DNA of 64,000 nucleotides from Candidatus Latescibacterota bacterium. Its GTDB lineage: Bacteria; Latescibacterota; UBA2968; UBA8231. The position numbers and the translations under genes were made by a program. The notes under the pieces were generated by a model. The model saw only the letters and a program-made list of their open reading frames with translations. It searched no databases and was not told where the DNA came from. Shown one piece after another: positions 12,829 through 55,934 of the stretch (the first letter of the stretch is position 1; each line of letters opens with the position of its first letter). The stretch spans positions 3,584,001 to 3,648,000 of the forward strand of contig OZ220089.1 of NCBI GenBank assembly GCA_964291625.2. The letters run 5' to 3'.

Positions 12829-12879
12829 GGTCCTCACATCCTATTGCCAGGATCGAACCGCCGCCACAGGTTGAGGCCC

Positions 12880-15614: not shown

Positions 15615-15629
15615 GGTCCGGGGGTGGAG

Positions 15630-16694: not shown

Positions 16695-16736
16695 TGTGCT
16701 CCTTCACCTCAGCGGGGCCGGCGGAGGACGATCCGT

Positions 16737-35100: not shown

Positions 35101-35398
35101 GGAGCGGCTCGGGCTGCCCGAAGGCCCCCAGTTGCAGCAGAACGCCCCCAATCCCTTCAACAGCGGCACCGTGATCTCCTGGTTCCTGCTGCAACCGGGG
35201 TTGGCGCGCCTGGAGGTGTTCGCCCTGACCGGGCAGCGGGTGGCGGTGCTGCACCAGGGGCCGAAGAAGCCGGGGATGCACCGCGTCCACTGGGACGGCC
35301 GCGACGAGCAGGGCCGGCCTCTGGCCAGCGGGATCTACTTGTACCGGCTGGTGACGGCCGGGTCCGTGCAGACGCGCAAGCTCACCCTGCTGAGGTAG
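32189..35398 (+). CDS. Secreted metzincin-like protease with LRRs, four Big_1-like Ig domains, dockerin-like EF-hands and FlgD/T9SS-like CTD
   Basis: Signal peptide; HELGHTFGVAH; internalin-like LRRs; SGDxQxG...V.V.DQNG repeats; DFDGDGEIGFSDF; NAPNPFN...GIYLYRL...TRKLTLLR. Confidence 0.85.
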   Translation: MAERESKGVPLGLCMAVLCLLLWPPGSVRGTPSSVDGVPFYLNPGPWERDPAGLPAAKPLAGLNAGEPRTVRMIYFLPNDRQARPDIDATFDTLIRQVQQSYAEQMENHGFGRRTFRFETDGDGRALVHHVKGEFDDGHYRTNMWDTVWEEVTELFDLTENIYLVSLDVSDAPYCGLGASWGPEGGIVVIPYDIFENEHPWACGNVAVIAHELGHTFGVAHDYFRDAVRSPSSYHTDWMVNSFAAAEWLAAHRYFNVGRSYPHRDRPTTIRMLTPSAAPPRSIRLRFEVTDSDGLHQTQLFNSTGEACDFEGVSGERATVEFVTTEVTEAPGNEVELRVVDVHGNVVSDRFSIDILPLLDPEDVSIPDANLAAVVLETLDLPLGNSVTQLDMLRVRRLQGSSRQITDLAGLEHAVNMIDLDLGGNEIHDITPLAGLIILEVLGLWYNRISDVQSLMQMNSLQRLWLSGNSVSDLSPIAGLTNLKVIRLEGNPIAEKWPLYRLLQRNRFLEIDIDTRTLGMVSGDGQEGAAGAALAEPLSILVLDRYGDPLARTEVTFAVTGGGGTLSVTTATTDDDGRASTTLALGSRPGTNTVEARVSGLEPVTFSAVGLAVLTAVVGISGDEQQGAAGAQLPEPFVVEARDQNNNPLTGVEATFAVSAGGGTLSVETATTDAHGRATTTLTLGSGPGINTVTARVGELQPVTFSATGLAIPTTLSGISGDELQGAAGAPLDEPFFVEVRDQNGNLLAGIEVAFEITSGDGMLSAATVITDDDGRASTTLTLGSRPGTNTVEASVSGLEPVTFTATGQAVPQTLAIVSGDEQQGTVGAALAEGLVVSVRDQNGDPFAGATVTFEVTSGDGMLSAATAATDEDGRASTTLTLGRDPETVTVAAAVAGLEPVTFTATAKASPDFDGDGEIGFSDFFLFAEAFGGDDPSFDLDGSGAVDFADFFLFAERFGRPERSKLLALARERLGLPEGPQLQQNAPNPFNSGTVISWFLLQPGLARLEVFALTGQRVAVLHQGPKKPGMHRVHWDGRDEQGRPLASGIYLYRLVTAGSVQTRKLTLLR

Positions 35399-38796: not shown

Positions 38797-39621
38797 ATGA
38801 TCGGTCGAATCGCAATATCCTTCCTGTTCGCCGTGCCGCTGGCGGCGCAGACCAAGAACGTCCAGGACTACCTGCCCCTGGCTGTGGGCAACTCCTGGAC
38901 CTACGAGCATGAATACTGGAACGACAGACCGGGGCAGGAAGCCCCGCTTCAGATCACCGAGTTCACGATCTCCATCCTGCGTACGGAGGTCATCGATGGG
39001 GACACGTACTATGTGTTCTCAAGCCCGAGCGTCACCCTGCCGGGCGATTCTCCGAAGCACTTCATCGCCGGCAAGAAGCTGCGGTGGGATGGCAACAACC
39101 TGGAAGAACACGACGGCACCTCGTCGTCCTCTGTGTATCGGTTCGAGGTGCCAACGAGTAGCACTGATGCAACCGTCAGTGAGTATTCCATCTCCGCTCA
39201 TGGAGATACTCTGGCAAGGGCGATGGCCTATCTGAGACACCACAGCAGATTGATGTACCAGAGCTTCAGCTTCCTTGGCAACATGCCTGCTGACAACTGG
39301 CCTCCAACCAGAGGCGTCCTCTTCACGGAGCAGTATGGACTCCAATGGGCGATTGAAATCTGGATGGCCGGCGATGTGGGATCCAAAGCGATCACGATAT
39401 CCCCTGTACGAGCTGTGCTTCAGACCGCCTCCTCCTCATCCTCCACGTCTCGCGACAGGGATATCCCTGCCGAGACCTCCTCTGTCACTATCGAATGGGA
39501 TGACTACAACTGCTATTCCAGCGGCAATCACATCAAGTACGGCTCCACCTGCAACTATCCCCCCACCTCGTCCTCCTCGGCCTCTTGGGGCCTCATTAAG
39601 GCTGGGAGATCCAGTCGATAA
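38797..39621 (+). CDS. Secreted 'LPLAVGNSWTY' family protein 1 with C-terminal SWGxxK motif
   Basis: Signal peptide; paralog of 39657, 42127, 46313; ends SASWGLIKAGRSSR. Confidence 0.8.
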   Translation: MIGRIAISFLFAVPLAAQTKNVQDYLPLAVGNSWTYEHEYWNDRPGQEAPLQITEFTISILRTEVIDGDTYYVFSSPSVTLPGDSPKHFIAGKKLRWDGNNLEEHDGTSSSSVYRFEVPTSSTDATVSEYSISAHGDTLARAMAYLRHHSRLMYQSFSFLGNMPADNWPPTRGVLFTEQYGLQWAIEIWMAGDVGSKAITISPVRAVLQTASSSSSTSRDRDIPAETSSVTIEWDDYNCYSSGNHIKYGSTCNYPPTSSSSASWGLIKAGRSSR

Positions 39622-39656
39622 AACCTCTTGTCACAGACTCCAAAAGGGAGATTGCC

Positions 39657-40454
39657 ATGATCGCGCGCACTGCAGTCCTCCTACTCACCGCGCTGGCTCC
39701 ACTGGCAGCGCAGACGAGGAGTGTGCAGGACTACCTGCCCTTGGCTGTCGGTAACTCGTGGACCTATGCCCATCTATTCCTCGACGCCAGAGGCCGCAAT
39801 GAGATCGCTTTTCAGGGCGAGATCACCATCTCGATTCTGCGTACTGAAGTAATCGATGGAGACACGTACTACGTCTTCTCGGACGTGTCTACGGATGCTC
39901 CAGAGGGTGTCCCCAAGCACTTTCTGGCCGGCAAGAAGCTGCGGTGGGACGGCAACAATCTCACTGAGCATGATGGGGCCTCGTCACTCTCACTTTATCG
40001 CTTCGATGTCCCTACGGGAACTGATGGAGTAAGCCGGGAGTATTCCATACCAGAGACGCACGGACACACTTCGGTGAAGTCCTACGCCTTCATCGTATCG
40101 GATCGGTTGATGCTCCAGAGTTTTCAGTTCTCTGGAGAAGGTGCTCGTGGGGCTGTGATCGCCTTCTCCGAGGACTTCGGCCTACAGGAGGCCATCGAGG
40201 GCGAGGCCGCTGGAGACATGCTGGTCATGCAACACACTCTCACCCCAATCCGGGCGGTCTTCCAGACCGGCTCCCAGGACGCTTCCGCTCGTGATGCACA
40301 CACGTCTTCCTCCGCTGTCACAGTCGAGTGGGATGATTACCTCTGCTACTTTGGCAACGATGATGTCTTTCTTGGCGTTAGCTGCAACTACCCTCCCACA
40401 TCCACCTCCTCCAACTCCTGGGGATTGATAAAGGAAGGAAGTGATACCCGATGA
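39657..40454 (+). CDS. Secreted 'LPLAVGNSWTY' family protein 2
   Basis: Same conserved blocks (RTEVIDGDTYYVFS, GKKLRWDGNNL); ends SNSWGLIKEGSDTR. Confidence 0.8.
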   Translation: MIARTAVLLLTALAPLAAQTRSVQDYLPLAVGNSWTYAHLFLDARGRNEIAFQGEITISILRTEVIDGDTYYVFSDVSTDAPEGVPKHFLAGKKLRWDGNNLTEHDGASSLSLYRFDVPTGTDGVSREYSIPETHGHTSVKSYAFIVSDRLMLQSFQFSGEGARGAVIAFSEDFGLQEAIEGEAAGDMLVMQHTLTPIRAVFQTGSQDASARDAHTSSSAVTVEWDDYLCYFGNDDVFLGVSCNYPPTSTSSNSWGLIKEGSDTR

Positions 40455-40922
40455 GAGTCCTCGTCATCCTGATGGCTTCAATGTTGACCTCTCAGGTAGC
40501 ATATGCTCAATCGCGGGTGACAGACCTTACAACCCTCAGTGTTGTCCTGGTGACCTTTGCGGACGATGTGCCCCACGGGTACACCCGACGGCAACCCACA
40601 GCCGGTATGCCACACACGCTGGTTGCAGGAGATCACGCCTACACCATGGACGACTTCGAGATCAAATTCGGCGTGTCGGGGACGTTCGACAACGAAGAAG
40701 GCATCACCCTTGACAAGGACGAGGAGTTGCCAGCCGTCTACGGTAGTGTCAAGGATTACTTTGATGAGATGTCCGGGGGGAGAGCTTGACTTCGATGTCC
40801 GGATTGTCAATAAGGAAGATCCCAGCGATACGGATCACCCAGAGTGGATTGAGATGCCTGAAGACCGGGCATATTACACAGCCCAAGGCATCAATCAGTC
40901 GGAATTCTTGACCCATGCCTTA
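40451..40922 (+). pseudogene. Truncated M6-like protease head (frameshift in the G run at 40775-40780, cut at ~40922)
   Basis: VVLVTFADD.P.G, YTMDDFE, YGSVKDYFDEMSGG match the N-termini of 42942 and 47234; ATGA-coupled to upstream partner. Confidence 0.8.
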
Positions 40923-41269
40923 GTCCGCAGGCCCTCGACGATCCTCCTGGTCTCCCGGTTGAAGGACACCGGCGCCCCCGACTTGGCGTCGAAGACCACC
41001 ACCCCCACCGGCGAGGTGTCGATCAGCGTCTCCAGGTCGGCCCTGGCCCTCCGCTCCTCCCGGTGGCCGGGCATTGGCGATGACCAGGGCCGCCTGCGAT
41101 GCGAACATCACCAGGGTCTCCTCGTCCTCCCGGCTGAACTCGGGGCCTCCCCCCTCCTTGGCTAGGTAGTCGAGGCTCTCGTTTGATGCGCAGCTGGCCT
41201 CGCTCAGCCGGGACAGTCGCTCGCTGAGCGCGGCGACGTCTTCAGGGCGATCTCCTCGGCAGGTCTCAT
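40923..41269 (-). pseudogene. Second internally deleted copy of the hybrid kinase-regulator
   Basis: 40923-41165 matches 37126-37370; 41170-41269 matches 37700-37799. Confidence 0.85.
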
Positions 41270-41332
41270 CCGCTGATCTCCGGTCTGAGGGCGATGCCGG
41301 CTCTCAGGGACCGAATTCGAGCAAAAAACCAA

Positions 41333-41401
41333 CAAGACACACAAGAAAACACCCCCGAAGGGGCAAGGAGACACAAAAGCCACACATCCACAAGGTAAAT
41401 T
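41333..41401 (+). promoter_or_regulatory. Divergent promoter copy 3: CACACAAGAA / GACACAAAAG boxes plus TAAATT
   Basis: Boxes at 41338 and 41370; -10-like hexamer at 41396. Confidence 0.65.
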
Positions 41402-41739
41402 GGACCCCGAAAGTCAGCGCGTCGCGATGACCGGCCTCCGGTCGTCTGCCTTGGACACCGACTTGAATCCCCGACCCGACGACGAAGTAGCGACCAACCG
41501 AGGAGCTGGCATGATAGCTGCAATCGTTCGTCTCATCGGGCTGGTTCTCGCGTTTCCGTGTCGGCGGATCCCCTTCTGGAAGCCCGCGTGCGGCTTCCCT
41601 CCGGTGCACCGGTTCCCGGGCGCAGGTGCTGCGTTCGATCTGACGGATCTGCGCGCCCCGCCGCTGGCGGTGACCACGGACCGCTCTGCGCATTTTCACC
41701 CTGCCCCTGGCCTCCTTGGCGGGAGCCCTGCCGGCTGGG

Positions 41740-42103
41740 CCGGACAGGGCCTGATCCGCTCCCTGGCCTACACCGGCGGAAACTTCGAAAAGGCGCCGAA
41801 CGCCATCGTCCGCTGACCACCGAGATGGGCTACTTCCGGAGCACCGCGACAAATGGACTACGCGCGCTATCACGCGGCCGGGCTGATCCTCTCCAGCGGT
41901 CCCGTGGAGCGCCGCCGCCAAAGCCCTGGTCGGCCATCTACTCAAACGCAGCGGCATGCGCTGGACCCGAGAGGGAGGCCAGCAGATCCTCAATCTCCGA
42001 GTCCAGGTGCAATCCAACCGATGGGAGGCTTTCTGGAAGTGGTACCTGCTCCAGACGACGCACCAGACCTACAAGAGGGCTGCACAGAGCCGAGGCAACA
42101 CCC
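41740..42103 (+). mobile_element. ISKra4-family remnant (frameshifted C-terminal transposase fragment and right end)
   Basis: MDYARYHAAGLILSSGPVE...LKRSGMRWTREGGQQILNLRV; ends ...CACCC at 42103. Confidence 0.7.
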
Positions 42104-42126
42104 GAAACCAACCAAGGAGGCTCCTC

Positions 42127-42945
42127 ATGATCGCTCGTCGTATCGCATTGATCGTGCTGGCGACGCTGGCTCCCCTGGCGTCTCAGACGACGACCTTCGC
42201 AGTGTCCGACCACCTGCCTCTGGCCGTCGGCAACTCATGGACCTACGAAGTGTGGTTCTATGACCATGAGCCGGATGCGGTGACTTACACGGGGTATCGG
42301 GACTCTGAGTCGAAGAGAGTCACGCTTACCATCCTCAAAACAGAGGTATTGGACGGGGAGACCTACTATGTCTTCTCCGACATGCCTACTGGCTGGCCTC
42401 CCGCGCCTGTGCACTCTGTGGCCGGGAAGAAGCTGCGCTGGAACGGAAACAACCTGACCGAGCACAACGGCACATCCTCCTTCTCGGTGCTTCAATTCAG
42501 AGAAGGCCCGGAGGACGGTTCTGTCTTCTATGAATACACGGTGAGTCCTTCGGAGGCTGATGGTAATACGAAGGTAAAGATGTATGTAGCCGCCGACGCC
42601 AACGGCATGTACTCTTCGGGGTTTGACTTACGGGGCGGGACGATCTCTCCTTTTTCGGCAAGAATCGTGAGATTCATCACTGGCTACGGAATGACCTATG
42701 CCCAAGAATCCTACGTCCCAGAGGCAGACATGATGTACCCCACAAGAGAAACTTTCCTGCGCCCAGTAGAAGCTCGTCTTGCTTCGGATGATGACGACGC
42801 CAGAAGACAGACGACGTATCGGATCTATACGTATAAGGAAATCACTAGGGCTTCTTGGGGAGATACTGGCTTCCCCGAAGGGACCTCAGAGACTTCCACT
42901 GATCGGTCTTCTTGGGGTCAGGTCAAGGAGAGGGACCTGCGATGA
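42127..42945 (+). CDS. Secreted 'LPLAVGNSWTY' family protein 3
   Basis: AAGGAGG SD; signal peptide; ends SSWGQVKERDLR; ATGA overlap with downstream protease. Confidence 0.8.
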   Translation: MIARRIALIVLATLAPLASQTTTFAVSDHLPLAVGNSWTYEVWFYDHEPDAVTYTGYRDSESKRVTLTILKTEVLDGETYYVFSDMPTGWPPAPVHSVAGKKLRWNGNNLTEHNGTSSFSVLQFREGPEDGSVFYEYTVSPSEADGNTKVKMYVAADANGMYSSGFDLRGGTISPFSARIVRFITGYGMTYAQESYVPEADMMYPTRETFLRPVEARLASDDDDARRQTTYRIYTYKEITRASWGDTGFPEGTSETSTDRSSWGQVKERDLR

Positions 42946-45900
42946 TGACTCGGGTTGGTGTGCTGGTTGTGATCTTCCTGTGGATCGGGTCACCGGTCCA
43001 CGGCCGGAAGAACGACACCTGGGTGGAGGATACGAACCTCTATGTGGTGCTTGTGAAGTTCGGCTCGGACCTGCCGCATGGATGGGTGGCTGGGTCTCCT
43101 CCGACTCCTGGCGATGACGCCTACACCATGGAGGACTTCGAGCGCCTGTTTGGCGTCGAGGACGCACCAGGGTTTGGAGAGACGGACACACAGTCGGTTG
43201 CGGACGGCAACGAACCGCTGCCCGAGTTGTACGGAAGCATCAAGGACTACTTTGATCATCTGTCGGGCGGCGAGTATGACCTGACCATCAAAATCCTCAA
43301 TCCAGAGGACAGCGAGGGGTATCCCAAGTGGCTTACCATCAACCGTGCAAAGTCGCACTATCTCAACTTGTTCCACCCAGACCGCCAATTCTATGAACAC
43401 AGCATCGAGAAGCTGGAAATGATGATGCCTCGCTGGTATCCCGGCGATCACCTGGACTATGTGATACCGGGATTGCTCCCTCATCCTCCAACCACCGGAA
43501 CCCCAAGTCCAGGCACTCCAGCTCAACGACGCACCAACAAGGTCGCGTTCGTGTATGCTGGGTTCACCTCCGCCAAGGATGCCAATTTCACGGCTCTGCA
43601 TCCGCGAGCAGAAAGCGTGTCCAGCCCCACACCGAGATCAGGGACCGGAGTGGCGTCCTATGCGACATGGTACCAGACGGGTGCGAGGCAAGGGGACGGC
43701 CTCGGTGGTACCGATCCGGCTGAGAAATTCTCGGGTATCGGTATTCACATCCACGAGATCGGCCACATCCTCGGCCTGAGCCATGGAAGAGGCCGGTCCA
43801 ATGTCACCAACCCGTATACCACCGTGAACAGGACACGAGGAACAGCCAACTTCCTGTCTTGGGGTCCCATGTCCTCGAACTCCCAAGGGCCTCACTCCCA
43901 AGGATCAGAGCACCCTACCGATGCGGACTATGCGTATCTGTACCAGTTCCAATCCTGCCCTGCTCCGTACAACCCCGCCTACATGAAGTTCCTTGGATGG
44001 GGAGACCATCATCGAATCACGAGGACCCAGAGCCAGCCCTTCCTCCCGTCTCCCGATGACTACTACTACATCGAGGGAGAGAACGACTCCAGATATCACT
44101 TCGACTTCCGCTCTGCGGACGACTTCGGTCATTACGTGCTCTCTCATGCGTTTGAAGATGCTCCTGGTCTGATGATCTGGAAGCACCGACAAGAGCCCCC
44201 GAGTGCGTACATATCCGCTACTGCACCCCGTGTCATCCCGGCCGACGGCCGATCCATATACAATGCCTTGCCGAACACAAAGAGCGGAGCCACGGTCAAG
44301 GAATTCAGCAGCACGGCGACCTACGCCTGGCTCGATCTCCTGTCGGACCCGTTCGGGGCTCTGCCCGACAACGGATCCGAGCAGACGATCCGAGCCTTAC
44401 CGCATTCGGTGGACAATCCCACCGAGCTGCCCTCGGTGCTGACCTATCGAAATCCCGAGCACCGATGGACGCCCGACTGGGCGACGGATGCGTCTCTGTT
44501 TCGGCAGAGGAACAGTGCAGGGCAGGACCGGCCATCCCATGTCGCCGTCCGCAACATCCACATCCTCCGCGATGAAGAGGGGTCCGGGTCTGCCGTAGCC
44601 AACGTCTACAAGAATTACCAGGAGGGCCCTCTCCATGAGGACATGGTCGAGTGGAGCGGAGACGTCTACGTCGGAGCGGACGTGACCATCGGAGAAGACC
44701 AGACCCTGGACATTGCCGATGACGCCGTCGTCCATTTCCTGGCACCTCGAAGTGCCGGCCCGACCTCGGAGCATCCCCACGGGGTGGACCCCAACGGTAC
44801 GAACATCACAGAGCTTATCGTCCAGGATAGTGGCACCCTCAACATCGGCAGGAACGTGACCTTTCGGTCCATGCGGGAGGAGTATACGGACTCTGACGGG
44901 GATCGAGTGGAGCAAGACGATGTCGATCCGGAGGGTCATGGCCTCATCGTCGAGTCGGGGGGCGAGGTCACCATCCAGGGCCTGACCATCACCGATGGCG
45001 ATCACTACCTGTACAGCGAGGGGGAGGTGACTCTGGCCGGGGACCTGAGGATCTCAGGCAAGCACTCCTCGTTGAACCTGCGTCGGAGCCCGTCCACTGC
45101 GGACGCCGCCGACGAGGCCGTGACGATCAAGATCGCATCCGGTGACGCGGCCATGGACGGCAGGGACGAAACCAAGGTGGAGATCATCGTGGACGGAGCG
45201 AAGTGGAAGGGTCAGACCCTCGTCGAGGCGGCCGAGCTGAACGCCCTCAACGACACCTTCGAGCCCGCCGATGACAACACGTCCGGATGGCAGGGCATCG
45301 AGATCAACGCCAACTCCGGCGGACGGGTGCACCTGACGGGAGCGACCCTGAAGGAAGGGGATTGGTGTCTGCGTGTGCCCTACCCGGAGCACGTCACGCT
45401 GGGCAACGCCACCTTCACCAACTACGGCCTGATGAAGCCGGTCGGGGATCACGACGTGCGCGAGTTCGAGAAGCTCGGCGACGACTACTGGACCGCCGGC
45501 TACAAGGTCCGGAGTTCCGTCACCGGCCCCAAAGACTCCCCGGCGAGTGTGGCCTGGTCCCTGTCCGGAGACGATGCCGGCCAGCTCGAGATCCATGCCG
45601 GCAGCGGTGTCCTGACGTTCGCGGATCCCGGGGCCGACTTCGAGGCTCGCTCGGACCGCGTCTACACGGCCACGGTCCAGGCCATCGTTGGACCGCCCGC
45701 CGTTCCTCTCGCCACGGTCGAGCAGGACGTGAAGATCACGGTCCTGGACGTCCCGGCTCCCGATGCGCCGGCCGTCACCCTGGATCCCGACAGCGGCCGT
45801 GAGACGGCGGGTGCGACGGTCACCCTGGACAACGACCAGGGAATGCGGGTGAGGCAGGTCCTGGCCCGGCTGTCGTCGGTGCCGGCGGAGGACCCGGACG

Positions 45901-46316
45901 GCACGCGCCAGTGGCACCCGCTGGGCCGGCCCAACGCGCCCGGCGCCCCGAGCGAGGCGGACGGGTACTACGAGACCTCGATCGCGTACACGAACGACAA
46001 CACCTACGAGTCCTGGAAGGAGTCCGGCACGGCGTACGAGTGGAGCGTATCGCCCAACCGGACCTACCGGTTCGAGGCGAAACTCGAGAACCTCGAAGGA
46101 GAGAGCGAGGTCGGGAGCGTCTCGTACACCCCCCCGCCGAGGGATCCTCTGACCATCTCGGGCCCGTCCACGCCGTTCTACTATATCGACTGGACGGCTC
46201 CCATCGGGACGTACAAGGAATGGCCCCGAGTTGTCTCGGTCCACTACACCTTCGACACAAATGACTCTCACATCCCGCATCTCGCCGGCTCAGCCGGCGC
46301 AAGGAGATGGCAATGA
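42942..46316 (+). CDS. Secreted M6 (immune inhibitor A)-like metalloprotease A; homology to copy B ends at 46215, lacks tail and CTD
   Basis: YGSIKDYFDHLSGG, HEIGHILGLSH, WGPMS Met-turn, P.YNP...LGW; stalk near-identical to copy B. Confidence 0.8.
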   Translation: MMTRVGVLVVIFLWIGSPVHGRKNDTWVEDTNLYVVLVKFGSDLPHGWVAGSPPTPGDDAYTMEDFERLFGVEDAPGFGETDTQSVADGNEPLPELYGSIKDYFDHLSGGEYDLTIKILNPEDSEGYPKWLTINRAKSHYLNLFHPDRQFYEHSIEKLEMMMPRWYPGDHLDYVIPGLLPHPPTTGTPSPGTPAQRRTNKVAFVYAGFTSAKDANFTALHPRAESVSSPTPRSGTGVASYATWYQTGARQGDGLGGTDPAEKFSGIGIHIHEIGHILGLSHGRGRSNVTNPYTTVNRTRGTANFLSWGPMSSNSQGPHSQGSEHPTDADYAYLYQFQSCPAPYNPAYMKFLGWGDHHRITRTQSQPFLPSPDDYYYIEGENDSRYHFDFRSADDFGHYVLSHAFEDAPGLMIWKHRQEPPSAYISATAPRVIPADGRSIYNALPNTKSGATVKEFSSTATYAWLDLLSDPFGALPDNGSEQTIRALPHSVDNPTELPSVLTYRNPEHRWTPDWATDASLFRQRNSAGQDRPSHVAVRNIHILRDEEGSGSAVANVYKNYQEGPLHEDMVEWSGDVYVGADVTIGEDQTLDIADDAVVHFLAPRSAGPTSEHPHGVDPNGTNITELIVQDSGTLNIGRNVTFRSMREEYTDSDGDRVEQDDVDPEGHGLIVESGGEVTIQGLTITDGDHYLYSEGEVTLAGDLRISGKHSSLNLRRSPSTADAADEAVTIKIASGDAAMDGRDETKVEIIVDGAKWKGQTLVEAAELNALNDTFEPADDNTSGWQGIEINANSGGRVHLTGATLKEGDWCLRVPYPEHVTLGNATFTNYGLMKPVGDHDVREFEKLGDDYWTAGYKVRSSVTGPKDSPASVAWSLSGDDAGQLEIHAGSGVLTFADPGADFEARSDRVYTATVQAIVGPPAVPLATVEQDVKITVLDVPAPDAPAVTLDPDSGRETAGATVTLDNDQGMRVRQVLARLSSVPAEDPDGTRQWHPLGRPNAPGAPSEADGYYETSIAYTNDNTYESWKESGTAYEWSVSPNRTYRFEAKLENLEGESEVGSVSYTPPPRDPLTISGPSTPFYYIDWTAPIGTYKEWPRVVSVHYTFDTNDSHIPHLAGSAGARRWQ
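44680..46215 (+). repeat. ~1.5 kb near-identical direct repeat (stalk); second copy at 49001-49621 + 51204-52119
   Basis: Line-by-line near identity from GACGTGACCATCGGAGAAGACCAG to CCATCGGGACGTACA. Confidence 0.9.
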
Positions 46317-47233
46317 TCGCTCGCATCGCAGTGCTCGTCCTAGGTGCGCTTCCACTGAGAGCACAGACGATAGACCCAACCGCCGACGGCTCCAGCTACA
46401 CCGTGCAGGACTCCTATACGATCCAGGACTTCATGCCGATGGCCGTCGGCAACTCATGGACCTTCGAGCATCTGTACATGGACCAACGCCACTTCTACGA
46501 TCCGGACCACACGGAGAATCTGCATCTCACGGATAGTATCCACCATGGCTCTGGGTACTTCCCCACCTGGGATGCTTCTGACAAACGTCTGACGATCTCC
46601 ATTGTCCGCACGGAAGTGCACGATGGGAACACGTACTACGTGTTCTCGGCCACCCTGCCCTCAGGCAGCTGGCCGCCGGCCCCCGGGTTCACGGAGTCCA
46701 GCACCACAAAGCTCCTGCTCGGGATGAAACTTCGATGGGATGGGGACACTATCATGATGTGGGACGGAGTGTCCGCTGTAGAGCTGCTTCGGTTCCCTGC
46801 TCTTCCCAGCAATTCTGACCTTAGAGTCGAAGATACTGCCTATAACGCCTCGATTGACGGTCAGTCCTACCCCGTCAGCACATATAGTAGACTGAGTCGT
46901 CTCAACGACATTCCCGAGATTGGATTCGCTTTCTCTTCGCACGGATTCGGATCCGGGATAGGGTTCGTCGGCGGATTCGGAGTCATCGGCACTACCCTAT
47001 CCAGCGACCGCATTGACATAGATGTTGGTCCTCCTTTTTGGAACGAGCTTTTCGGAGTGGAGGCCACTCTTGTGGTGGATGGCGACGGCGGTAGCCGAGA
47101 CTCCTCCGACATCTCAGACAGTCAAGAGACTATCACCATTGACAGGTCTGACCTCCGGTATTGGCAACGCAGGGGTCGCCGATCCACCTCCCTCACAAAC
47201 TCATCTTGGGGTGCCGTAAAGGAGACCGACTGA
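46313..47233 (+). CDS. Secreted 'LPLAVGNSWTY' family protein 4
   Basis: AAGGAG SD; QDFMPMAVGNSWTF; ends NSSWGAVKETD; stop abuts next ATG. Confidence 0.8.
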   Translation: MIARIAVLVLGALPLRAQTIDPTADGSSYTVQDSYTIQDFMPMAVGNSWTFEHLYMDQRHFYDPDHTENLHLTDSIHHGSGYFPTWDASDKRLTISIVRTEVHDGNTYYVFSATLPSGSWPPAPGFTESSTTKLLLGMKLRWDGDTIMMWDGVSAVELLRFPALPSNSDLRVEDTAYNASIDGQSYPVSTYSRLSRLNDIPEIGFAFSSHGFGSGIGFVGGFGVIGTTLSSDRIDIDVGPPFWNELFGVEATLVVDGDGGSRDSSDISDSQETITIDRSDLRYWQRRGRRSTSLTNSSWGAVKETD

Positions 47234-49621
47234 ATGACACGGAGCTGCGCCACAGCCATGGCCATCCTGGCGTTTCTCGTGGAGGATGGCATGGCCCAGA
47301 GATTGCGTTGGACTCGCAACACGACGCTGAACGTAGTCCTTGTAACCTTCCCGGACGATCTGCCCCAGGGCCATACCCGGAGCGACGACGGGGATGATTC
47401 CACCTACGATCTGGTGCCGGGGTCCACGGCCTACAAGATCAGCGACTTCGAGCGTCTCCTCGGTGTAGACGAAGCCGATGACTTCGGCAGTTTCGCTAAT
47501 CCGACAGGGGTTAGAGTGGGCACGGACGAAGACCTCCCCGAGACCTATGGCAGCCTGAAGAAGTACTTCGATGACATCTCTGGAGGAGACTACAACCTCA
47601 CTGTGAGGATCCTCAACCCCCCTCATCCTGATTCGGATCACGACGAGTATCCTCGCTGGATGGAGATGGCTCTAAACAAGAGCCACTACAGAGCAATCCC
47701 CATCCGCAATACTCCCCCGCCGTATACAAGGCGCGAATTCTTCATAGATGCCACAGCCATCCTGCACAGTGGCACGATAGATCTCTCATCGTTTTCGGAC
47801 GTGCCCAGCAATGACTCTGGGCGATCTCTGACAACCGCAAACAAAATCGTCTTCATCCACTCGGGAACGTCCATTTCAGATGGATCTGTATTGCATCCTC
47901 AGGTGGACGCCTTCAGAGGATATCGGTATGTCATCGGCGAGCGGATGGGTCTTGCCTCTGATCGAGAGAGAGCTGACGATGCCATCCGGTTTGGTGGACT
48001 CAGTCTCCATGCCCACGAGATCGGTCATCTGTTGGGGTTCCGCCATCCTGGAGGATTCTCAACGGTAGAGAATGTCTACCGGATGCAGACTCCAGGAGAC
48101 ACCTACAGGGACGGGGACGGCAATCGGCAAACCTATGAGCGATGGGGTGGGGCGGACATGGCGGGATGGGGCCTCATGCAAGGAGATGAGAACGGACCCG
48201 CCCTGGAGAGCAGCTTGCCGAGAGACACAGATTATGCCTATGTGGCCTCTCACAGATCATGCCCTCAGTATTACAATGGCATCTTCATGAGAGACCTTGA
48301 TTGGGGCACCCATACTCCCATCACCACGACAACGCAGAGCCAGAGGGTTGATCCGGCGCCGGATGACTTCTATCACATTGAGTACCAGCACACCGTCATC
48401 CATGGGGTTCAGCGACCGCGATGGATCGTGCTGGACTTTCGCACGGCGGTCGATTGGGGACAGTATGTGAGTTGGTACCGCTTCGCGCAGCCAGCGGGGC
48501 TGTTGGTCTGGAGAGGAGACTTCTGGAGTGCACAGTTGCTCCCTGCCGATGGACGGCCCCTCAGCAATGCCCTGGGTGTGCATGCTGGGTACTCCTCTCG
48601 TGAATTCAGCACGACGGACATCTATCCCTGGATGGAGAGATTGTCCGATCCGTTTGGGGCAATTGAAGGCAACGGACTTCGGCAGACCATTCTCTCGATG
48701 AAAGCCTACAAGGAAGACGGCGAGACTCTGACGGACGATCCGCTGGTATTGACGGGGGGCACCCATCGGTGGACGCCCGATTGGGCGACGGATGACAATC
48801 TGCTGACCCTGATAAACCAAACGGATGTTGATTCTGACTTGATCACGGAGACCTCCGACACCCATATCGCTCTGAGAAACATACATGTGGTGCGCGGCGG
48901 AGCCTCGGGGTATGCTTTGGTGAATGTCTACCTCAACTACCAGGAAGGGCCTCTCCCGGATGATGCGGTAGAGTGGAGTGGCAGTGTCTACGTCGGTGCC
49001 GACGTGACCATCGGAGAAGACCAGACCCTCGACATTGCCGATGACGCCGTCGTCCATTTCCTGGCACCTCGAAGTGCCGGCCCGACCTCCGAGCATCCCC
49101 ACGGGGTGGACCCCAACGGTACGAACATCACAGAGCTTATCGTCCAGGATAGTGGCACTCTCAACATCGGCAGGAACGTGACCTTTCGGTCGATGCGGGA
49201 GGAGTATACCGACTCTGACGGCGATCGAGTGGATCAAGAGGATGTCGATCCGGAGGACCACGGCCTCACCGTCGAGTCGGGGGGCGAGGTCACCATCCAG
49301 GGCCTGACCATCACCGATGGAGATCACTACCTGTACAGCGAGGGGGAGGTGACTCTGGCGGGGGACTTGAGGATCTCAGGCAGGAACTCCTCGTTGAACC
49401 TGCGTCGGAAACCGTCCACCGCGGCCGGTACCGACGAGGCCGTGACGATCAAGATCGCATCCGGTGACGCGACCATGGGGGGAGAGAACACCTCCAAGGT
49501 GGAGATCATCGTGGCCGGAGCGAAATGGGACGACAAGACCCTTGTCGAGGCGGCCGAGCTCAACGCTGTCAACGACACCTTCGAGCCCGCCGATGACAAC
49601 ACGTCCGGATGGCAGGGCATC

Positions 49622-51195
49622 GGGCACCTTAGGCGATTGTTATAGCGGGATTTGGGGACGTATGTGTATGTTTTCCAGTGACTTGCTGTCGGTGGCCGCC
49701 TCCCCCGCGGCCGGCTCCCCTGCCTTGACGAAGGAGGGGAGCGATGACCGCGATTCTCTCTCTGGCGCCCTTTCAGCGGCGGCCGCTGTGGGAGCGCTTC
49801 CGAGATCAAGCGCATGAAGCCCTGGATGCGTTGCTGGATCGGCTGGAAGCCGGCATGACCCAACCCGGAAGTTGTGCGCCGACGTTGATGGAGATCACCG
49901 ACGCGGTGTCCCAAGAGCGCGCCGGACTCACCGCGGCCCTGGTGGAAGGCTTCGTCGAACGCCGCCATGGCCCGTTGCTGACGCAACAAGAGGCGGCTTG
50001 CCCCCAGTGTGAGCGCCTCTTGCCGGCGCGGGCTTCGCGCTCTCGCACGGTGGAAACCCTCTTGGGGCCGGTGACCTTGGAGCGGCCCTATTTCTACTGC
50101 GCGGCCTGTCACCACGGGTTCTATCCGCTGGACGAGGCCTTGGCTTTGTCGGGGCACCGCAAGCAGACGGACGTGCAGCAGGCCGGAGTCAAGCTGGCGC
50201 TGGAGATGCCCCACCAGCGCGCCTCGAAGCTGTTGGACGAGCTGACCGACGCGTCGATGAGCGACCGTGTGATTCACGAGGTGCTGCAACAGACCGGGGC
50301 CTTGGACGTGCTGCAGGTGTGTCCAGACGCGGCCGACATCCAGGATCGCATTGCCCGGGCCGCCGCCGGCCGCAAGTGGCGGCCGATCGTGGTGTTGGCC
50401 ATCGACGCGGCCGACGTGCCCAGCCGTCCCGAGACCGCCAAAGGGACGCGTCCCGGGCGCAAGAAGAGCCGGGCCCGGCGAAGGCGCTGGCAGGGGGAAT
50501 ACCACGAGGCCAAGGGCTTTCGCTTCTACCTGGTCGACGACGACCGCATCGAGCAGTTGATCTCCTGGCACCAGATGGGCGACGAACAGGCTTTCGGTGC
50601 GGCTTTGCGCCAAGTCCAGGAGGCGGGCCTGATCCCGGAGGACCAGGTGCGCTTGTGTGCCATCGCCGATGGCGCCCCGTGGATCTGGAAGTGGGTGGAA
50701 GAGCTGTTCCCGAAGGCCCGTCAGATCCTCGACTACTACCATTGCAGCGGCTACCTGCACGCGGTGGCCGAGGCGCAATACGGTGCCGACGGGACCCGGG
50801 CCGCTCATTGGCTGGAGGCGGCCCTGGCCCGCCTGTTCTGCGGCGAGGCGGCGGGCGTGGTCTGGGGTCTGCAGCGCATGCAGCCGGTCTCGGACGAGGC
50901 CGAAGAGGCGATCGGCGCGGCCGTGACGTACCTGCACAAGCGGCTGCACCAAGTCGACTTCGGCAGTCATCGGAAGGGGGGCTACCCGATCGGCTCCGGG
51001 GCGATCGAGTCGGCCCATCGTTTCATCGGCCATGTTCGCCTGAAGCGATCCGGCGCCTGGTGGTATCAGGAAAACAGCAACGCCATCCTGGCCCTGCGCT
51101 GCGCCCTCTACAACGGTACCCTCGATCGCGTCTTCCAGAAGCACCAAGATCACCTCACAAAATCACCGGAACCGTAACAATCACCTAATGCACCC
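49622..51195 (+). mobile_element. Complete ISKra4-family insertion sequence (1574 bp) with 8-bp TSD AGGGCATC
   Basis: IRL GGGCACCTTAGGCGATTGTTA vs reverse-complemented IRR GGGTGCATTAGGTGATTGTTA; TSD at 49614-49621 and 51196-51203; empty site seen in copy A (~45292). Confidence 0.92.
49744..51177 (+). CDS. ISKra4-family transposase
   Basis: CPQC/YFYC..C zinc ribbon, PLDEAL, ADGAPWIW, ILDYYH, IGSGAIESAH, RLKRSGAWW. Confidence 0.9.
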   Translation: MTAILSLAPFQRRPLWERFRDQAHEALDALLDRLEAGMTQPGSCAPTLMEITDAVSQERAGLTAALVEGFVERRHGPLLTQQEAACPQCERLLPARASRSRTVETLLGPVTLERPYFYCAACHHGFYPLDEALALSGHRKQTDVQQAGVKLALEMPHQRASKLLDELTDASMSDRVIHEVLQQTGALDVLQVCPDAADIQDRIARAAAGRKWRPIVVLAIDAADVPSRPETAKGTRPGRKKSRARRRRWQGEYHEAKGFRFYLVDDDRIEQLISWHQMGDEQAFGAALRQVQEAGLIPEDQVRLCAIADGAPWIWKWVEELFPKARQILDYYHCSGYLHAVAEAQYGADGTRAAHWLEAALARLFCGEAAGVVWGLQRMQPVSDEAEEAIGAAVTYLHKRLHQVDFGSHRKGGYPIGSGAIESAHRFIGHVRLKRSGAWWYQENSNAILALRCALYNGTLDRVFQKHQDHLTKSPEP

Positions 51196-52664
51196 AGGGC
51201 ATCGAGATCAACGCCAACTCCGGCGGACGGGTGCACCTGACGGGAGCGACCCTGAAGGAAGGGGATTGGTGTCTGCGTGTGCCCTACCCGGAGCACGTCA
51301 CGCTGGGCAACGCCACCTTCACCAACTGCGGCCTGATGAAGCCGGTCGGGGATCACGACGTGCGCGAGTTCGAGAAGCTCGGCGACGACTACTGGACCGC
51401 CGGCTACAAGGTCCGGAGTTCCGTCACCGGCCCCAAAGACTCCCCGGCGAGTGCGGCATGGTCCCTGTCCGGAGACGATGCCGGCCAGCTCGAGATCAAC
51501 GCCGGCAGCGGCGTCCTGACGTTCGCGGATCCCGGGGCCGACTTCGAGGCTCGCTCGGACCGCGTCTACACGGCCACCATCCAGGCCGTCGTTGGACCGT
51601 CCGCAGCTCCTCTTGCCACGGTCGAGCAGGACGTGAAGATCACGGTCCTGGACGTCCCGGCCCCCGATGCGCCGGCCGTCACCCTGGATCCCGACAGCGG
51701 CCGTGAGACGGCGGGGGCGACGGTCACCCTGGACGACGACCAGGGAATGCGGGTGAGGCAGGTCCTGGCCCGGCTGTCGTCCGTGCCGGTGGATGACCCG
51801 GAAGGCACGCGCCAGTGGCACCCGCTGGGCCGGCCCAACGCGCCCGGCTCGCCGAGTGAGGCGGACGGGTTCCACGAGACCTCGATCGCGTACACGAACG
51901 ACAGCACCTACGAGTCCTGGAAGGAGTCCGGCACGGCGTACGAGTGGAGCGTATCGCCCGACCGGACCTACCGGTTCGAGGCGAAACTCGAGAACCTCGA
52001 AGGAGAGAGCGAGGTCGGGAGCGTCTCGTACACCCCCCCGCCGAGGGATCCTCTGACCATCTCGGGCCCGGCCACGCCCTTCTACTACATCGACTGGACG
52101 GCTCCCATCGGGACGTACACCGCGGCCGACAGCGACGGCGACGCGGTGACGGGTCTCTCCTGGACGGCCTCGGACGACAAGTTCGTCATCAGCGAGGCCG
52201 GGCAACTGAGCTGGGCCACCGGCCAGAGGCCCGCCTACAGCGAGAGCGGCCGCAACGAGTACGAGGTGAACGTCGAGGCCAGCAGCTCGACCCACGAGTC
52301 GCCCGAGTACGCCGTCACGGTAACCCTCCGGCGCAATACCGCCGGGCAGGTCTCCCTGACGAATTCCGATCCGCCGACCTCGGGGGAGACGATGGTGGCC
52401 AGTCTCACCGATCCCGATGATCCCAAGACCATCCTGTCGTGGACTTGGGCCCGGATCTCCGGGGACGACGAGACGCCGCTGACGGGCACGGACTCCGAGG
52501 ATGGTCTGACATCGAAGTACCAGATGGACAGCGAGGACGTAGGCGCCCGGGTCCGCGCCACGGTTACCTACGACGACGCTCACCAGGACGGGGCGACGGC
52601 CGCCCGCACGACGGCGGCTGTGGAGCCGGGGAACAGTGCGCCGACGATCTCGGGCGAAGCGACG

Positions 52665-54420
52665 GTCACCATGGACGAGCATAGCACCACGGTGGCCTCC
52701 TACGAGGCCGATGATCCCGACGCAGTCGACACGATCACGTGGCAGGCTCTGGAGGGCGCGGACGCCGACAGCTTCGAGGTGGAAGGCACGGGGAACACCC
52801 GCACCCTGAGGTGGCGGAACGCCCCCGACTACGAGAAACTGCCCAAGTATCAGTTCACGGTGGTCCTGAAGGTCCGCGACAACCACGGGGCCCTGAGCGA
52901 CCCGAAGACCGTCACCGTCAAGGTGCGCAACATCGACGAACCGGGCACCGTCACCCTTTCCACCTATCCTCCCAAGCCCTGCGCGCCCGTCTCCGCAACC
53001 CTCAGGGATCCGGATGGGGGCATCACCTTGGAGGGAAGAGACACCTACGGCTGGATGTGGCCGATCCAGGATTCCCCGCCGTCGCCGGCCCGTGCGCCCC
53101 CGCGTCCTTTGGTTGCCACCCGAACCTACACGCCGAAGAACCGGGACGTGGGCAAGACCATTCAGGCAACGGTCCAGTACGGAGACGCTCAGGGCCCCAA
53201 CAAGAGCGCCACGTCCGCCTCCAGCACCACCGTGGTCGCCAACATCCCACGAGCTCCCGGACGCTACATGGTGACGGGTGGGGTGGAGTCGGTCCGCCTG
53301 GCCTGGACCAAGCCGGACGATTGTGGCTCGGAGATCACCGAGTACCAGTACAAGTATCGGCGGGGCACCGGCGACTGGACGACCGGCACGATCGACAAGA
53401 GCCAGACCTCCCATACGATCAGCGGGCTGGATGGAGGCGTCGAGTACCAGGTGCAACTGCGAGCCCGCAACGGCGTGTCTCACAACTCGGGCTACAGCGC
53501 GGCGGTCACCAGCTCCGCCACGACGATTGACGGGAATGATCCTCCCACACTGGAAGGCCCCGGGGAGGTCACCATGGACGAGCATAGCACCACGGTGGCC
53601 TCCTACGGGGCCGATGATCCCGACGCAGGCGACACGATCACGTGGGAGGCTCTGGAGGGCGCGGACGCCGACAGCTTCGAGGTGGAAGGCACGGGAAACA
53701 CCCGCACCCTGAGGTGGCGGAACGCTCCCAACTACGAGGAACTGCCCAAGTATCAGTTCACGGTGGCCCTCAAGGTCCGCGACAACCACGGGGCCCTGAG
53801 CGACCCGAAGAGCGTCACCGTCAAGGTGCGCAACATCGACGAACCGGGCACGGTCACCTTCTCCACGACGGTCCCCAAGGCCTGCGGGTCCGTCACGGCC
53901 ACTCTGCGAGATCCGGACGGCGGCATCAACCTGGAGAACACGGACGAGACCTATGGATGGGCGTGGACCGCTCAGGATTCGCCGCCGGCCCGTGCACCGC
54001 TCATACCGGTGTCCGTCACCGAGTCCTACGAGGTCCGGAACCGAGACGTGGGCAAGACGCTTCGGGCCTCGGTCTTGTATGGGGACTCTCAAGGTCCCGA
54101 CAAGTCCGCCGCTGCCACTACTCTGACCATACTGGCCAATGTCCCGAAGGCCCCTGGGGGCTACGATGTCACCGGTGGGGTGGAGTCGGTCCGCCTGGCC
54201 TGGACCAAGCCGGACGATTGTGGCTCGGCGATCACTGAGTACCAGTACAAGTATCGGCGGGGCACCGGGAACTGGACGACCGGCACGGTCGGCAAGAGCC
54301 AGACCTCCCATACGATCAGCGGGCTGGATGGAGGCGTCGAGTACCAGGTGCAACTGCGAGCCCGCAACGGCGCGTCTCACAACTCGGGCTACAGCGCGGC
54401 GGTCACCAGATCCGCCACGA
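52665..54420 (+). repeat. Intragenic tandem duplication, 903-bp period (cadherin-like + linker + FN3 unit)
   Basis: ACCATGGACGAGCATAGCACC recurs with ATG at 52671 and 53574; near-identical FN3-coding blocks. Confidence 0.85.
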
Positions 54421-55934
54421 CACAGCATGGGAATCGCGGTCCCACACTCGACGACGGCACGGCCTCCGTGGCGGAGAACTCCACTGCTGTCGGCACCTAC
54501 ACGGCGACCGACCCCGACGCAGGAGATGTCCTCCGATGGAGCCTGAGCGACGAAACGACGTTCAGCATCACGGCCTCGTCGGACACGCGCAGTGGTACCC
54601 TGGTCTTCGACAACGCTCCCAACTACGAGACCAAGAGCAGTTACTCGGTCGTCATCACGGTAACGGATCAGGCCGGGGCCACGGACACGGGCACCATCGG
54701 CATCACGGTCACCAACGAGGACGATCCCGGTGTCGTCATCCTCACCCCGTCGTCGCCTCGTGTCGGAGATACCGTCCGGGCGGCCTTGACCGACGAAGAT
54801 GGGGTCACCAACGCCCAGGGCTGGGCGTGGTCTACCGAATCGAGTGCCTCTTCCGCCTCGGGCGAGGGCTCGGACCGCACGCCCCGGTTCAACACGGAAT
54901 TCGACGTCACCAGTGCTCATGTCGGCCAGTACATCAAGGCCTCTCGGAGCTATGACGACAATCACGGGTCGGGCAAGTCCGCGACCGGCACCACCGGGAG
55001 CGTCCGCGCCAACAAGCCCAAGGCGCCGCCCAACCTCCGCGCGGCTCGCGGCGATGGGGAGGTCACCCTGACGTGGGATGCGGCCGATGACCAGGGAGCC
55101 ACCATCGACCGCTACAACTACCGCTACAAGACCCGTGACGGCACGTACGGCAACTACAAGCGTGTCTACTCCCGGAGCAAGACCATCGACGGTCTCACCA
55201 ACGGCACCGAGTACGATTTCCAGGTGAGGGGGCACAACTCCGAGGGCTTCGGGCCTCCCTCGTCCACCTCCGCCACTCCGGCCGGCAAGCCCGATGCCCC
55301 GAGCGGCTTCAGCCATGGGCGCAGCGGGGCCAACTCGGTCACCGTCTCGTGGGACGAGCCGGAGGACAACGGCTCGGCCATCACGGGGTACTACTGGTAC
55401 AAGAGACAGGGGCCGACGTGGAGTGCTCCGACATGGGTGACGGACAGAGAGTTCACGGACGACAATTCCTGGAACGCCCGGTCGCATAGATACGCGGTCA
55501 GGTCCAAGAACGGCGTCGGAGAAAGCGACATGGCCGAGTACACCGTGCCCGCAGAGGAGCAGAGGAGGTCGGCCAAGCCTGTGGCCGACTTCGCGGACTC
55601 GACCGGCTTCGGGGTCATGGCGGCCCCCAATCCGTTCAACCCGGAGACCGCGATCTTCCTGGCTCTCCCCGAGGCGATGGCGGTGAGTCTGACCGTCTAC
55701 GGCATCACCGGCCAGGAGGTCGCCAGTCTCCGCGAGGGGCAGGTGCTGGAGGCTGGGCTACACAGCATCCGGTGGGCCGGGAGAGACGACCAGGGACGGC
55801 CTGTGGGCTCAGGAATCTATCTGTACAGACTCCTCGCTGGGACCGAAGCGAGGGTTGGGAAGATGCTGCTGATTCGGTGAGGCGGCGGTGACATGAGGCG
55901 GGTCGCAGACCGGAACTCAAAAGGAGTTGAAGCG

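Follow-up and report, generated by a model that had tools for sequence, protein, structure and literature searches.

The DNA analysed here is a window of 64,000 nucleotides (positions 3,584,001 to 3,648,000 of contig OZ220089.1, assembly GCA_964291625.2) from a Candidatus Latescibacterota bacterium whose genome comprises 5.9 Mb in 2 contigs with 69.5% GC. The assembly is metagenome-derived, with an estimated contamination of 6.6%, and parts of the locus also occur in sequencing runs labelled as sponge metagenomes. Within the window, positions 38797 to 55880 carry a tandem array of a two-gene module, in which a small gene for a secreted protein (the partner, P) precedes a gene that starts with a metalloprotease head. 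Two of the cassettes, A and B, have strongly diverged partners and heads, and yet both heads run into nearly the same stalk sequence. The features of the array are given below in coordinates of the whole window; the whole locus reads on the + strand.

38797-39621, +: P0, a partner-family gene without a head; 274 aa, signal peptide, SWG C-terminal tag, covering profile positions 7-268 of 270
39657-40454, +: P1, a partner-family gene; 265 aa, 54% amino acid identity to P0
40451 to ~40930, +: protease head stump; ~160 codons, frameshift near 40780 (three-frame translation)
40923-42103: mosaic of fragments that forms the spacer between stump and P2
42127-42945, +: P2, the partner of head A; 272 aa
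42942-46316, +: gene A; 1124 aa with signal peptide, metzincin head (42942-44600), stalk (44672-46215) and 33 unrelated codons
46313-47233, +: P3, the partner of head B; 306 aa
47234-49622, +: 5' part of gene B; head B (47234-48922), then the first half of the stalk
49623-51194, +: insertion sequence (IS) of the ISKra4 family within the gene B stalk; transposase 49744-51177
51195-55880, +: 3' part of gene B; second half of the stalk (to 52119), cadherin/fibronectin type III (FN3) tail and a FlgD-Ig / type IX secretion system (T9SS)-type C-terminal domain (~55614-55838)

Partner and head genes are closely coupled. ATGA stop/start overlaps join P1 to the stump, P2 to gene A and gene A to P3, the start of gene B directly abuts the stop of P3 (47233/47234), and the Shine-Dalgarno sequence of each head gene lies within the V-K-E codons that end the partner. 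Thus, the three partner/head couplings described in the original prediction for this DNA are confirmed by the open reading frame (ORF) coordinates, two as ATGA overlaps and one as direct abutment. Its count of three partner genes was too low, as four are found (P0 to P3, with P0 headless), and the first head, taken there for a protease gene, is instead the frameshifted pseudogene stump, which shares 41-48% identity with the N-termini of paralogous heads (tblastn). A promoter and terminator scan returned fewer sites than shuffled sequence. The module is also not peculiar to this locus, since tblastn detects 14 partner genes in the genome and heads at seven loci, numbered I to VII here.

The shared stalk is the feature that sets cassettes A and B apart. 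Its second half (45291-46215 versus 51195-52119) is 96.8% identical over 925 nt, with 30 mismatches and 0 gaps, and its first half (44601-45300 versus 48923-49622) 90.7% identical over 702 nt. High identity starts at ~44672, the preceding stretch 44601-44671 reaching only ~75%, and the ungapped 5' part from 44672 onwards is 92.2% identical. Overall, the two stalks share 92-97% DNA identity over ~1.54 kb (44672-46215), while heads A and B share 35-46% of their amino acids by tblastn (43% in a MAFFT alignment) and P2 and P3 share 31-36%, and the jump in identity at the head/stalk border occurs within ~70 nt. The claim of a near-identical ~1.5-kb stalk under diverged heads and partners therefore stands; the interval 49001-52119 that had been assigned to the stalk of copy B does hold the stalk, but it is not pure stalk, as it includes the 1572-bp ISKra4-family IS. 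The homology between A and B ends exactly at 46215/52119, and copy A then runs through its 33 unrelated codons into the start of P3, an abrupt stop after the stalk that had been described correctly. Because copy A ends exactly where its homology to B ends, gene A carries neither tail nor C-terminal export domain. The two stalk copies differ at ~78 positions. Synonymous divergence (pS) amounts to 0.147 for the 5' part of the stalk and to 0.056 for its 3' part, with a ratio of nonsynonymous to synonymous divergence (pN/pS) of 0.38-0.44; as this ratio is ~0.4 in both parts, the copies diverged under constraint, and on these figures they are themselves mosaic.

Base composition changes at the same border. 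The GC content of third codon positions (GC3) is 0.65-0.70 in partners and heads, 0.86 in stalk A and 0.82-0.86 in the neighbouring genes. In the other paralog pairs of the genome the stalk is never better conserved than the head, and only A and B show the reverse. Gene A and its paralog at locus II, for example, share 45% in the head and 31% in the stalk, the stalks at the other five loci are at 27-39% protein identity, and the head nearest to A is that of locus II (45-49%), not B. A contig of 1167 nt from run X3 tracks an orthologue of head A at 95% up to position 44713, after which its remaining 705 nt fall short of 85% likeness to the stalk; a related population thus has other sequence behind head A, and the departure lies within ~40 nt of the identity step. 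Because of the identity step, the GC3 step and the X3 contig that leaves the stalk at 44713, we take these data to show at least one recombination event at the head/stalk border, by which two unrelated cassettes came to lie on one stalk sequence, as the original prediction had supposed. One possible route may be a single-crossover integration within the stalk, with the segment from 46216 to the stalk end. Equally well, a tandem duplication may have been followed by replacement of one head.

The junctions themselves are present in reads. Run X4 contains 97% of the sampled words, and its mismatch-free contigs cover 41852-44738 and 46186-48922, the latter continuing into the stalk of B, so that both the junction of head A with the stalk and that of the stalk end with P3 are found in the reads. 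X4 may be the source sample, and the support is therefore read support only, not independent support; no single Logan contig spans the entire region. The depths in X4 (23.4 on P0-P1, 19.1 on P2-head A, 12.7 on P3-head B) were considered as a sign of population heterogeneity and allow no conclusion, with one figure per contig, and the depth of 22-23 on stalk A is explained by k-mers common to stalk B. Coverage gaps in the contig runs were likewise not counted as evidence, neither in X1 (no depth over 42328-43719, P2/head A) nor in X3 (none over the stalk, hardly any over P3/head B). A search for the stalk behind another head found no close relative in 5.8 billion clusters (proteins of 943-2690 aa; 10 hits, the best 29% apart from the own copies) and none among 40 related genomes, where the best match was 50% over 164 aa. 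Joining 46215 to 52120 would give a gene of 3274 + 3761 = 7035 nt, in frame as 5904 nt (3 x 1968) separate corresponding positions of the two copies, and would remove the IS at 49623-51194; the arithmetic of this predicted gene of head A and tail is correct.

The head has the hallmarks of a zinc protease. In an alignment of 32 sequences H271, E272, G274, H275, H281 and M310 are invariant and G278 is kept in >=90%. M310, a putative Met-turn, lies 29 residues after H281, the last histidine of HExxHxxGxxH, and it is this invariant motif together with the downstream methionine that makes the head a metzincin. It had been called M6-like, which holds as a distant likeness and fails as family membership: TIGR03296 scores 27.2 bits on A and 27.0 bits on B against a cut-off of 110.8, and PF05547 gives no hit at E <=0.01. 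Atlas feature scores of up to 0.96 for clusters that partly carry Peptidase_M6 (27% of members with PF05547) were a lead only. No propeptide was recognised in the heads, although no test aimed at propeptides was made. The head family comprises 122 representative clusters at 50% identity (E <=0.001, 1.84 billion proteins), and a scan of JGI metagenomes with head A returned two weak loci only, each 43% over 42 aa. Three fn3 matches, three cadherin matches and a C-terminal FlgD_ig domain (32.6 bits versus a cut-off of 27, residues 1482-1533 of the B 3' product) make up the tail of gene B. All of them are confined to the product of 51231-55880, so that tail and export domain do occur in the last cassette only, in line with the prediction. 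The genome encodes two PorU homologues above the cut-off of 420 bits (571.7 and 536.7 bits), and a further 49 genomic matches are limited to the C-terminal end of the PorU model (~970-1089), the B tail among them. Given the FlgD_ig C-terminus and the PorU homologues, T9SS-type export of B is plausible from its sequence. Within the tail, 52664-54425 holds a ~900-nt tandem duplication of a unit of cadherin, unassigned domain and fn3 at 90-96% identity (families D2, D3, D9). A literature search on Latescibacteria, sponges, metalloproteases and T9SS found nothing relevant.

The partners form a family of their own. P proteins have ~250-300 aa, a signal peptide, a conserved N-terminal half (LPLAVGNSWTY, TEVIDGxTYYV, AGKKLRW), a variable C-terminal half and, a few residues from the end, an invariant W-G-x-x-K within an SWG-x-[IV]-K tag. 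The family holds at least 289 clusters at 90% identity (E <=0.001), none with a functional name and almost none with a Pfam domain; some members are fused to a FlgD_ig domain or to leucine-rich repeats (LRRs). For P0 to P3 no Pfam family and no NCBIfam model matched, a search with 47 family members gave only four single chance hits (E >=0.08), and a profile search of the PDB with P returned antibody chains only (E >=0.36). A lead to DUF3108_like (atlas score 0.77) was rejected, as PF21347 is unmatched genome-wide at E <=0.01, partner genes included. No homology was found between P and the potempins, the peptidase inhibitors of Tannerella forsythia to which we return below; P0 to P3 have 265-306 aa and signal peptides that end in ...PLA(A/S)Q and lack a cysteine, and so differ from lipoproteins of 98-132 residues with a lipobox. 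The tag reaches beyond the family. Among genome ORFs of >=100 aa the motif [STAN]WG-x-[IVLM]-K lies <=10 residues from the stop in 54 of 58 hits and is often preceded by T-x-V. Its carriers are otherwise unrelated proteins whose open frames span 106 to ~1500 aa; 11 of the 14 partner genes have it, and ~40 other carriers are not of the partner family. In the window the tags lie at 39583-39600, 40416-40433, 42910-42927 and 47204-47221. The motif strings had no match in a literature search, and the tag has the look of a sorting signal not described so far, one that differs from the FlgD-Ig/T9SS-type domain.

A structure model was made of P2 (residues 21-272) with head A (residues 24-553), in three runs with three controls and with our own alignments supplied. 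The complex reaches an ipSAE of 0.80 (median of 0.77, 0.80 and 0.85), against 0.00 for the best control. It thus passes a mark that 116 of 157 solved complexes and 2 of 215 mismatched pairs reach, a calibration that is rough here since own alignments were used. The runs agree in >=53% of contacts, and the partner has a pLDDT of >=82. Confident contacts involve residues 134-160, 215-216, 227-228, 281, 285 and 300 of head A and residues 131-246 of P2, which belong to its variable half; H281 among them is a zinc ligand, the third histidine of HExxHxxGxxH. Interface columns are less conserved than average, both in P (0.23 versus 0.51) and in the head (0.36 versus 0.46). The model supports binding of P2 to head A. 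Across 16 adjacent pairs, partner and head distances co-vary with a Mantel r of 0.84, a value reached by 0 of 2000 permutations; such a correlation of sequence distances shows co-inheritance and is not by itself co-evolution. Both the modelled complex and the co-varying distances are in line with the cognate pairing that had been proposed for these genes.

The same pairing recurs elsewhere in the genome and in its relatives. Loci I, II and VII consist of a partner and an intact giant gene, at locus III the gene is split by an IS and at locus IV it is frameshifted, while locus VI (L057, G000:C1:3994000-4011999) has three intact partners and head fragments only, no head, the partners being interleaved with a surface protein of YWTD propeller and LRRs and with WD40 fragments that lack a protease domain; the seventh is the array described here. 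The partner profile is found in 37 of 168 phylum genomes searched, mostly within one family (29 of 75 genomes), and tandem copies are common; relatives with the same partner gene are labelled as metagenome-assembled genomes (MAGs) of Candidatus Latescibacterota or Gemmatimonadota. In other genomes, 13 of 18 strong partner loci are followed directly by a head or stump (1.5-kb flanks), as are 21 of the 33 loci L060-L092 (3-kb flanks), two sets that overlap in genomes and are therefore not independent. Synteny across genera, start/stop overlaps, co-variation and the complex model together bear out the view of small gene and protease as a cognate module.

These loci share an asymmetry. Intact partners stand beside truncated upstream heads, with the longest gene last, at loci II and V of this genome and in genomes G122 (L044), G156 (L045) and G019 (L046). 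Of the 7 partner genes that have no full head behind them, 6 are tagged and of full length as judged by profile coverage, and the stumps comprise 87-290 codons with no stalk homology. The genome G160 has adjacent giant genes with different N-termini and tail segments of 2.8-3.3 kb at 89-91% identity (L049, 4794-8070 versus 15595-18883; L050, 4407-7217 versus 10706-13503); one gene of the pair has a family head behind a partner, and the other encodes an HExxH protein that head queries do not detect. Partner genes and heads in 38797-49000 have 55-59% GC versus 69.5% in the genome, and likewise at loci II, III, VI and VII, while loci I and IV are near the genome value; the low GC is compatible with a horizontal origin of some cassettes. 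As a separate observation, the partners at loci III (C1:1568k) and VII (C2:1107k) are 91% identical and the heads 71%, and both partners lack the SWG tag, which may point to a further recombination or conversion event and to a partner subtype without the tag.

Signs of breakage are found throughout the locus. The IS at 49623-51194 belongs to the ISKra4 family by its transposase (NF033572, 243.2 bits versus a cut-off of 205) and its ends, which are imperfect inverted repeats of ~21 nt flanked by the duplicated target CAGGGCATCG, 8-10 bp; the sole other genomic copy is degenerate. Since the IS lies within the stalk, gene B is broken in this assembly. With the IS and one target copy removed, gene B would have 2354 aa by arithmetic, a usual length for this family, since the open frames of the intact paralogs have 2453-2695 codons. 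The paralogous protease gene of locus III is likewise split, at its head/stalk border, by a second IS of the ISKra4 family (G000:C1:1564780-1566250; transposase with 198.9 bits on NF033572), so that elements of this family interrupt 2 of 7 protease genes in the genome. Further pieces lie upstream of P0 and between stump and P2:

38138-38491: ISKra4-family IS fragment upstream of P0, 95.8% identity over 354 nt with the IS inside the locus III protease gene
40923-41169: duplicated fragment of the neighbouring hybrid histidine kinase gene (GAF/PAS region), 92.8% identical over 249 nt to 37126-37374
41737-42103, +: 3' remnant of an ISKra4-family IS that abuts the ribosome-binding site of P2, 81-85% nt identity to the locus III IS

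The last 23 residues of the remnant at 41737-42103 match the end of NF033572 (17.7 bits, E 0.0015), and the spacer between stump and P2 also holds a piece similar to sequence that adjoins other C-terminal domains. With its frameshifted stump, kinase fragment, IS remnants and the intact IS in B, the locus is, as far as the sequence can tell, a decaying and rearranged array. A related kinase piece (83%) lies upstream of locus I (C1:710288-710521), and kinase genes may travel with these loci. The flanking genes at 32189-35398, 55893-61421 and 61836-63998 encode other giant secreted metalloproteases, with weak reprolysin-like or Metallopep matches and with LRR or WD40 propellers; none has a partner gene. 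Big_1 repeats occur in both complete flanking genes (32189-35398, 55893-61421), and a FlgD-Ig match is listed only for 32189-35398. The region is an island of surface proteases.

We therefore favor, at a probability of roughly 0.6, the view that the locus is a tandem and partly decayed array of a conserved two-gene module, shaped by domain-boundary recombination in a paralog family with fast turnover. The first gene of the module would encode a secreted P of ~270 aa from an undescribed family, and the second, translationally coupled, a giant surface protease in the order signal peptide, M6-like metzincin head, stalk of ~540 aa, cadherin/FN3 tail and T9SS-type C-terminal domain. P would bind its own head via variable surfaces beside the zinc site and, by analogy, probably holds the protease in a latent state or shields the cell envelope until it is exported. 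Recombination placed two unrelated cassettes, A and B, on one stalk sequence, and the head/stalk boundary is sharp; copy B is complete but for its split by the IS, and older upstream cassettes persist as an intact P0 and as an intact P1 with its stump. One crossover between the stalk copies would create an intact gene of head A and tail and delete P3, head B and the IS. Regular head swapping is not borne out, neither as repeated nor as programmed exchange: the shared stalk is peculiar to A and B, and the upstream stumps, which have no stalk homology, are therefore unable to recombine onto the tail. No recombinase and no specific repeat or site was found at the locus. Thus, the locus does not look like a dedicated swapping device; it looks like the outcome of rapid birth, breakage and recombination of surface-protein genes. 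Several points weigh against this reading. The binding of partner and head rests on a structure model, and an inhibitor role of P is an analogy, because P lacks a lipobox, has double the size of a potempin and resembles no Pfam, NCBIfam or PDB entry. Neither A nor B is intact at full length in this assembly, and the locus may be non-functional as it stands. P may also have a surface role of its own, given the tag on ~40 non-partner proteins. Finally, the recurrence of intact partners beside truncated heads is unpredicted by random decay alone, and fits a displacement or an immunity-like model better.

Such a model, which the original prediction had in mind, is a mirror image of the Rhs and CDI (contact-dependent inhibition) loci, in which cassettes would have been recombined repeatedly onto a resident module of stalk, tail and export domain, with old heads displaced upstream to decay and partners kept as an immunity-like or inhibitor repertoire. 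We regard it as unlikely. It does account for decay that is graded toward the tail (a lone P0, then P1 and its 160-codon stump, then P2 followed by head A and the stalk, and last P3 before the full gene B), for the same asymmetry at locus II and in G122, G156 and G019, and for partners that lack a full head and are nevertheless full-length and tagged (6 of 7). The lower GC3 in partners and heads than in the stalk, head A on different downstream sequence in X3, the adjacent genes of G160 with different N-termini over tails at 89-91% identity, and the single crossover that would give an intact gene of head A and tail can also be cited in its favor. But there is one stalk-sharing pair only, and with stalks elsewhere at 27-39% protein identity no exchange is possible there; stumps of 87-290 codons without stalk homology provide no usable reservoir, the swap would be a one-way, irreversible deletion, and a close stalk relative with another head was found neither in the 5.8 billion clusters nor in the 40 related genomes. 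Fragments of a kinase gene, of ISs and of a region that adjoins a C-terminal domain, all lying between the cassettes, rather suggest complete genes broken by IS activity and deletion. It is similarly doubtful that the array is a polymorphic effector system of this mirror-image kind, with horizontally acquired cassettes, an acquisition that the low GC3 would fit, recombined at the head/stalk border and with retained partners that protect against the proteases of neighbours. If it were, the present state would be a pre-switch intermediate, and one crossover between the stalks would restore the head A gene and discard the IS-damaged head B.

Two further accounts of the shared stalk are far weaker. 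That one gene pair of P and protease was simply duplicated in tandem, with heads and partners diverging fast in place over a conserved stalk, is barely credible: the copies are indeed in tandem and in the same orientation, and the N-terminal halves of the partners share motifs, yet a synonymous stalk divergence of 0.06-0.15 goes with heads of 35-43% protein identity that align poorly as DNA, the identity jumps within ~70 nt, GC3 differs by ~0.17 between head and stalk, and head A is nearest to the head of locus II rather than to B. An assembly artefact, a repeat-induced chimeric join of head A to a copy of the B stalk, seems very improbable, even for a metagenome-derived assembly with 6.6% estimated contamination and no single Logan contig across the region, as the ~78 differences mean that the stalk copies are distinct sequences, the assembly is in 2 contigs, and mismatch-free X4 contigs bridge 41852-44738 and 46186-48922 onward (with X4 possibly the source sample and so not independent). 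A different question is whether P inhibits at all. It could instead assist export or folding as a chaperone, or serve as a surface adaptor, and in either case use its own SWG-tag route and dock the protease, a role that we hold possible but tentative. The position of the tag at the extreme C-terminus of varied proteins (54 of 58 motif hits), the fusion of some family members to FlgD_ig or LRRs and the strongly conserved N-terminal half, as expected of a shared docking function, agree with it. The modelled interface, however, is on the variable half of P and touches the zinc ligand H281, which fits a pair-specific block of the active site, and the heads seem to have no propeptide (none was recognised, although no test aimed at one was made), a gap that latency in trans would fill.

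On the favored reading, in which a conserved module recombines at its domain boundaries, the locus links an unnamed family of secreted proteins to a rare family of giant surface metzincins, and the modelled contact of P and head is a testable mechanism. If P is a cognate inhibitor, the logic of the potempins would reach beyond one oral pathogen, to uncultured sponge symbionts that belong to another phylum, and a protease with a cis-encoded guard would suggest itself as a general solution for T9SS-type cargo. The locus catches domain-boundary recombination part-way and is a natural test of how a catalytic head is changed in modular surface enzymes. The partners are further carriers of the SWG tag, now with a functional context.

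Several known systems resemble parts of this arrangement. Rhs and CDI loci combine a variable enzymatic module with a small cognate protein, hold displaced or partial modules beside one full-length gene and have a conserved segment for exchange. The locus described here likewise has a variable enzymatic module with a cognate partner, partial modules near a full-length gene and a conserved segment. However, the polarity is reversed, with the variable part N-terminal and partner and remnants upstream, and the absence of Rhs/YD, filamentous haemagglutinin (FHA) or haemagglutinin repeats among the Pfam hits sets it apart from these types. In addition, only copy A keeps stalk homology and the stumps have none, and the genes give no sign of interbacterial toxicity. 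M6 or immune inhibitor A peptidases (TIGR03296, PF05547) are zinc metalloproteases that have the HExxH core in common with the heads, whose third ligand is a histidine in HExxHxxGxxH. AprI/Inh proteins are periplasmic inhibitors of serralysins and are thought to guard the producer from premature activity. Here, too, a secreted and probable binding protein lies beside a secreted metzincin; size and sequence are unrelated, the secretion route is another one, and AprI/Inh systems are not known to have tandem arrays or shared stalks.

The closest published parallel is the potempin/KLIKK system of Tannerella forsythia. There, the stop of the upstream ORF overlaps the start of the peptidase gene or lies <=5 bp from it, both genes of a pair share a transcript, and every potempin is a specific inhibitor of the peptidase encoded behind it (PMC9890683). 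The six KLIKK peptidases belong to five families, are encoded at two loci and have a conserved C-terminal region with a T9SS domain (PMC9890683, PMC4404884). The arrays thus already pair an upstream cognate inhibitor with disparate catalytic domains on an export module (PMC9890683, PMC4404884), and the idea of a mirror-image Rhs system is less new in this respect than it had been made out to be. In both systems a small secreted protein is encoded directly upstream, with stop and start within <=5 bp here as well, the pairs are in tandem at few loci, and "orphan" partner-like ORFs occur; specific binding of the downstream peptidase has been shown for potempins and is modelled here. In KLIKK, different catalytic domains sit on a conserved C-terminal extension with a T9SS domain, a parallel that may hold here in part: A and B share the stalk (92-97% DNA identity), but only B has tail and C-terminal domain, and the other loci have diverged stalks. 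The parts differ. Potempins are lipoproteins of 98-132 residues, whereas P is about twice as large, has no lipobox and ends in the SWG tag. KLIKK heads come from five peptidase families and have prodomains, whereas all heads here are of one metzincin family with no prodomain recognised, although no test aimed at one was made. The proteases here are also far larger constructions, of ~2300-2700 aa with stalk and adhesin-like tail, and their host is an uncultured sponge symbiont of Latescibacterota type, not a pathogen of the Bacteroidota. The potempin/KLIKK system is the closest published logic for the array, and what the two have in common is that logic and not their parts.

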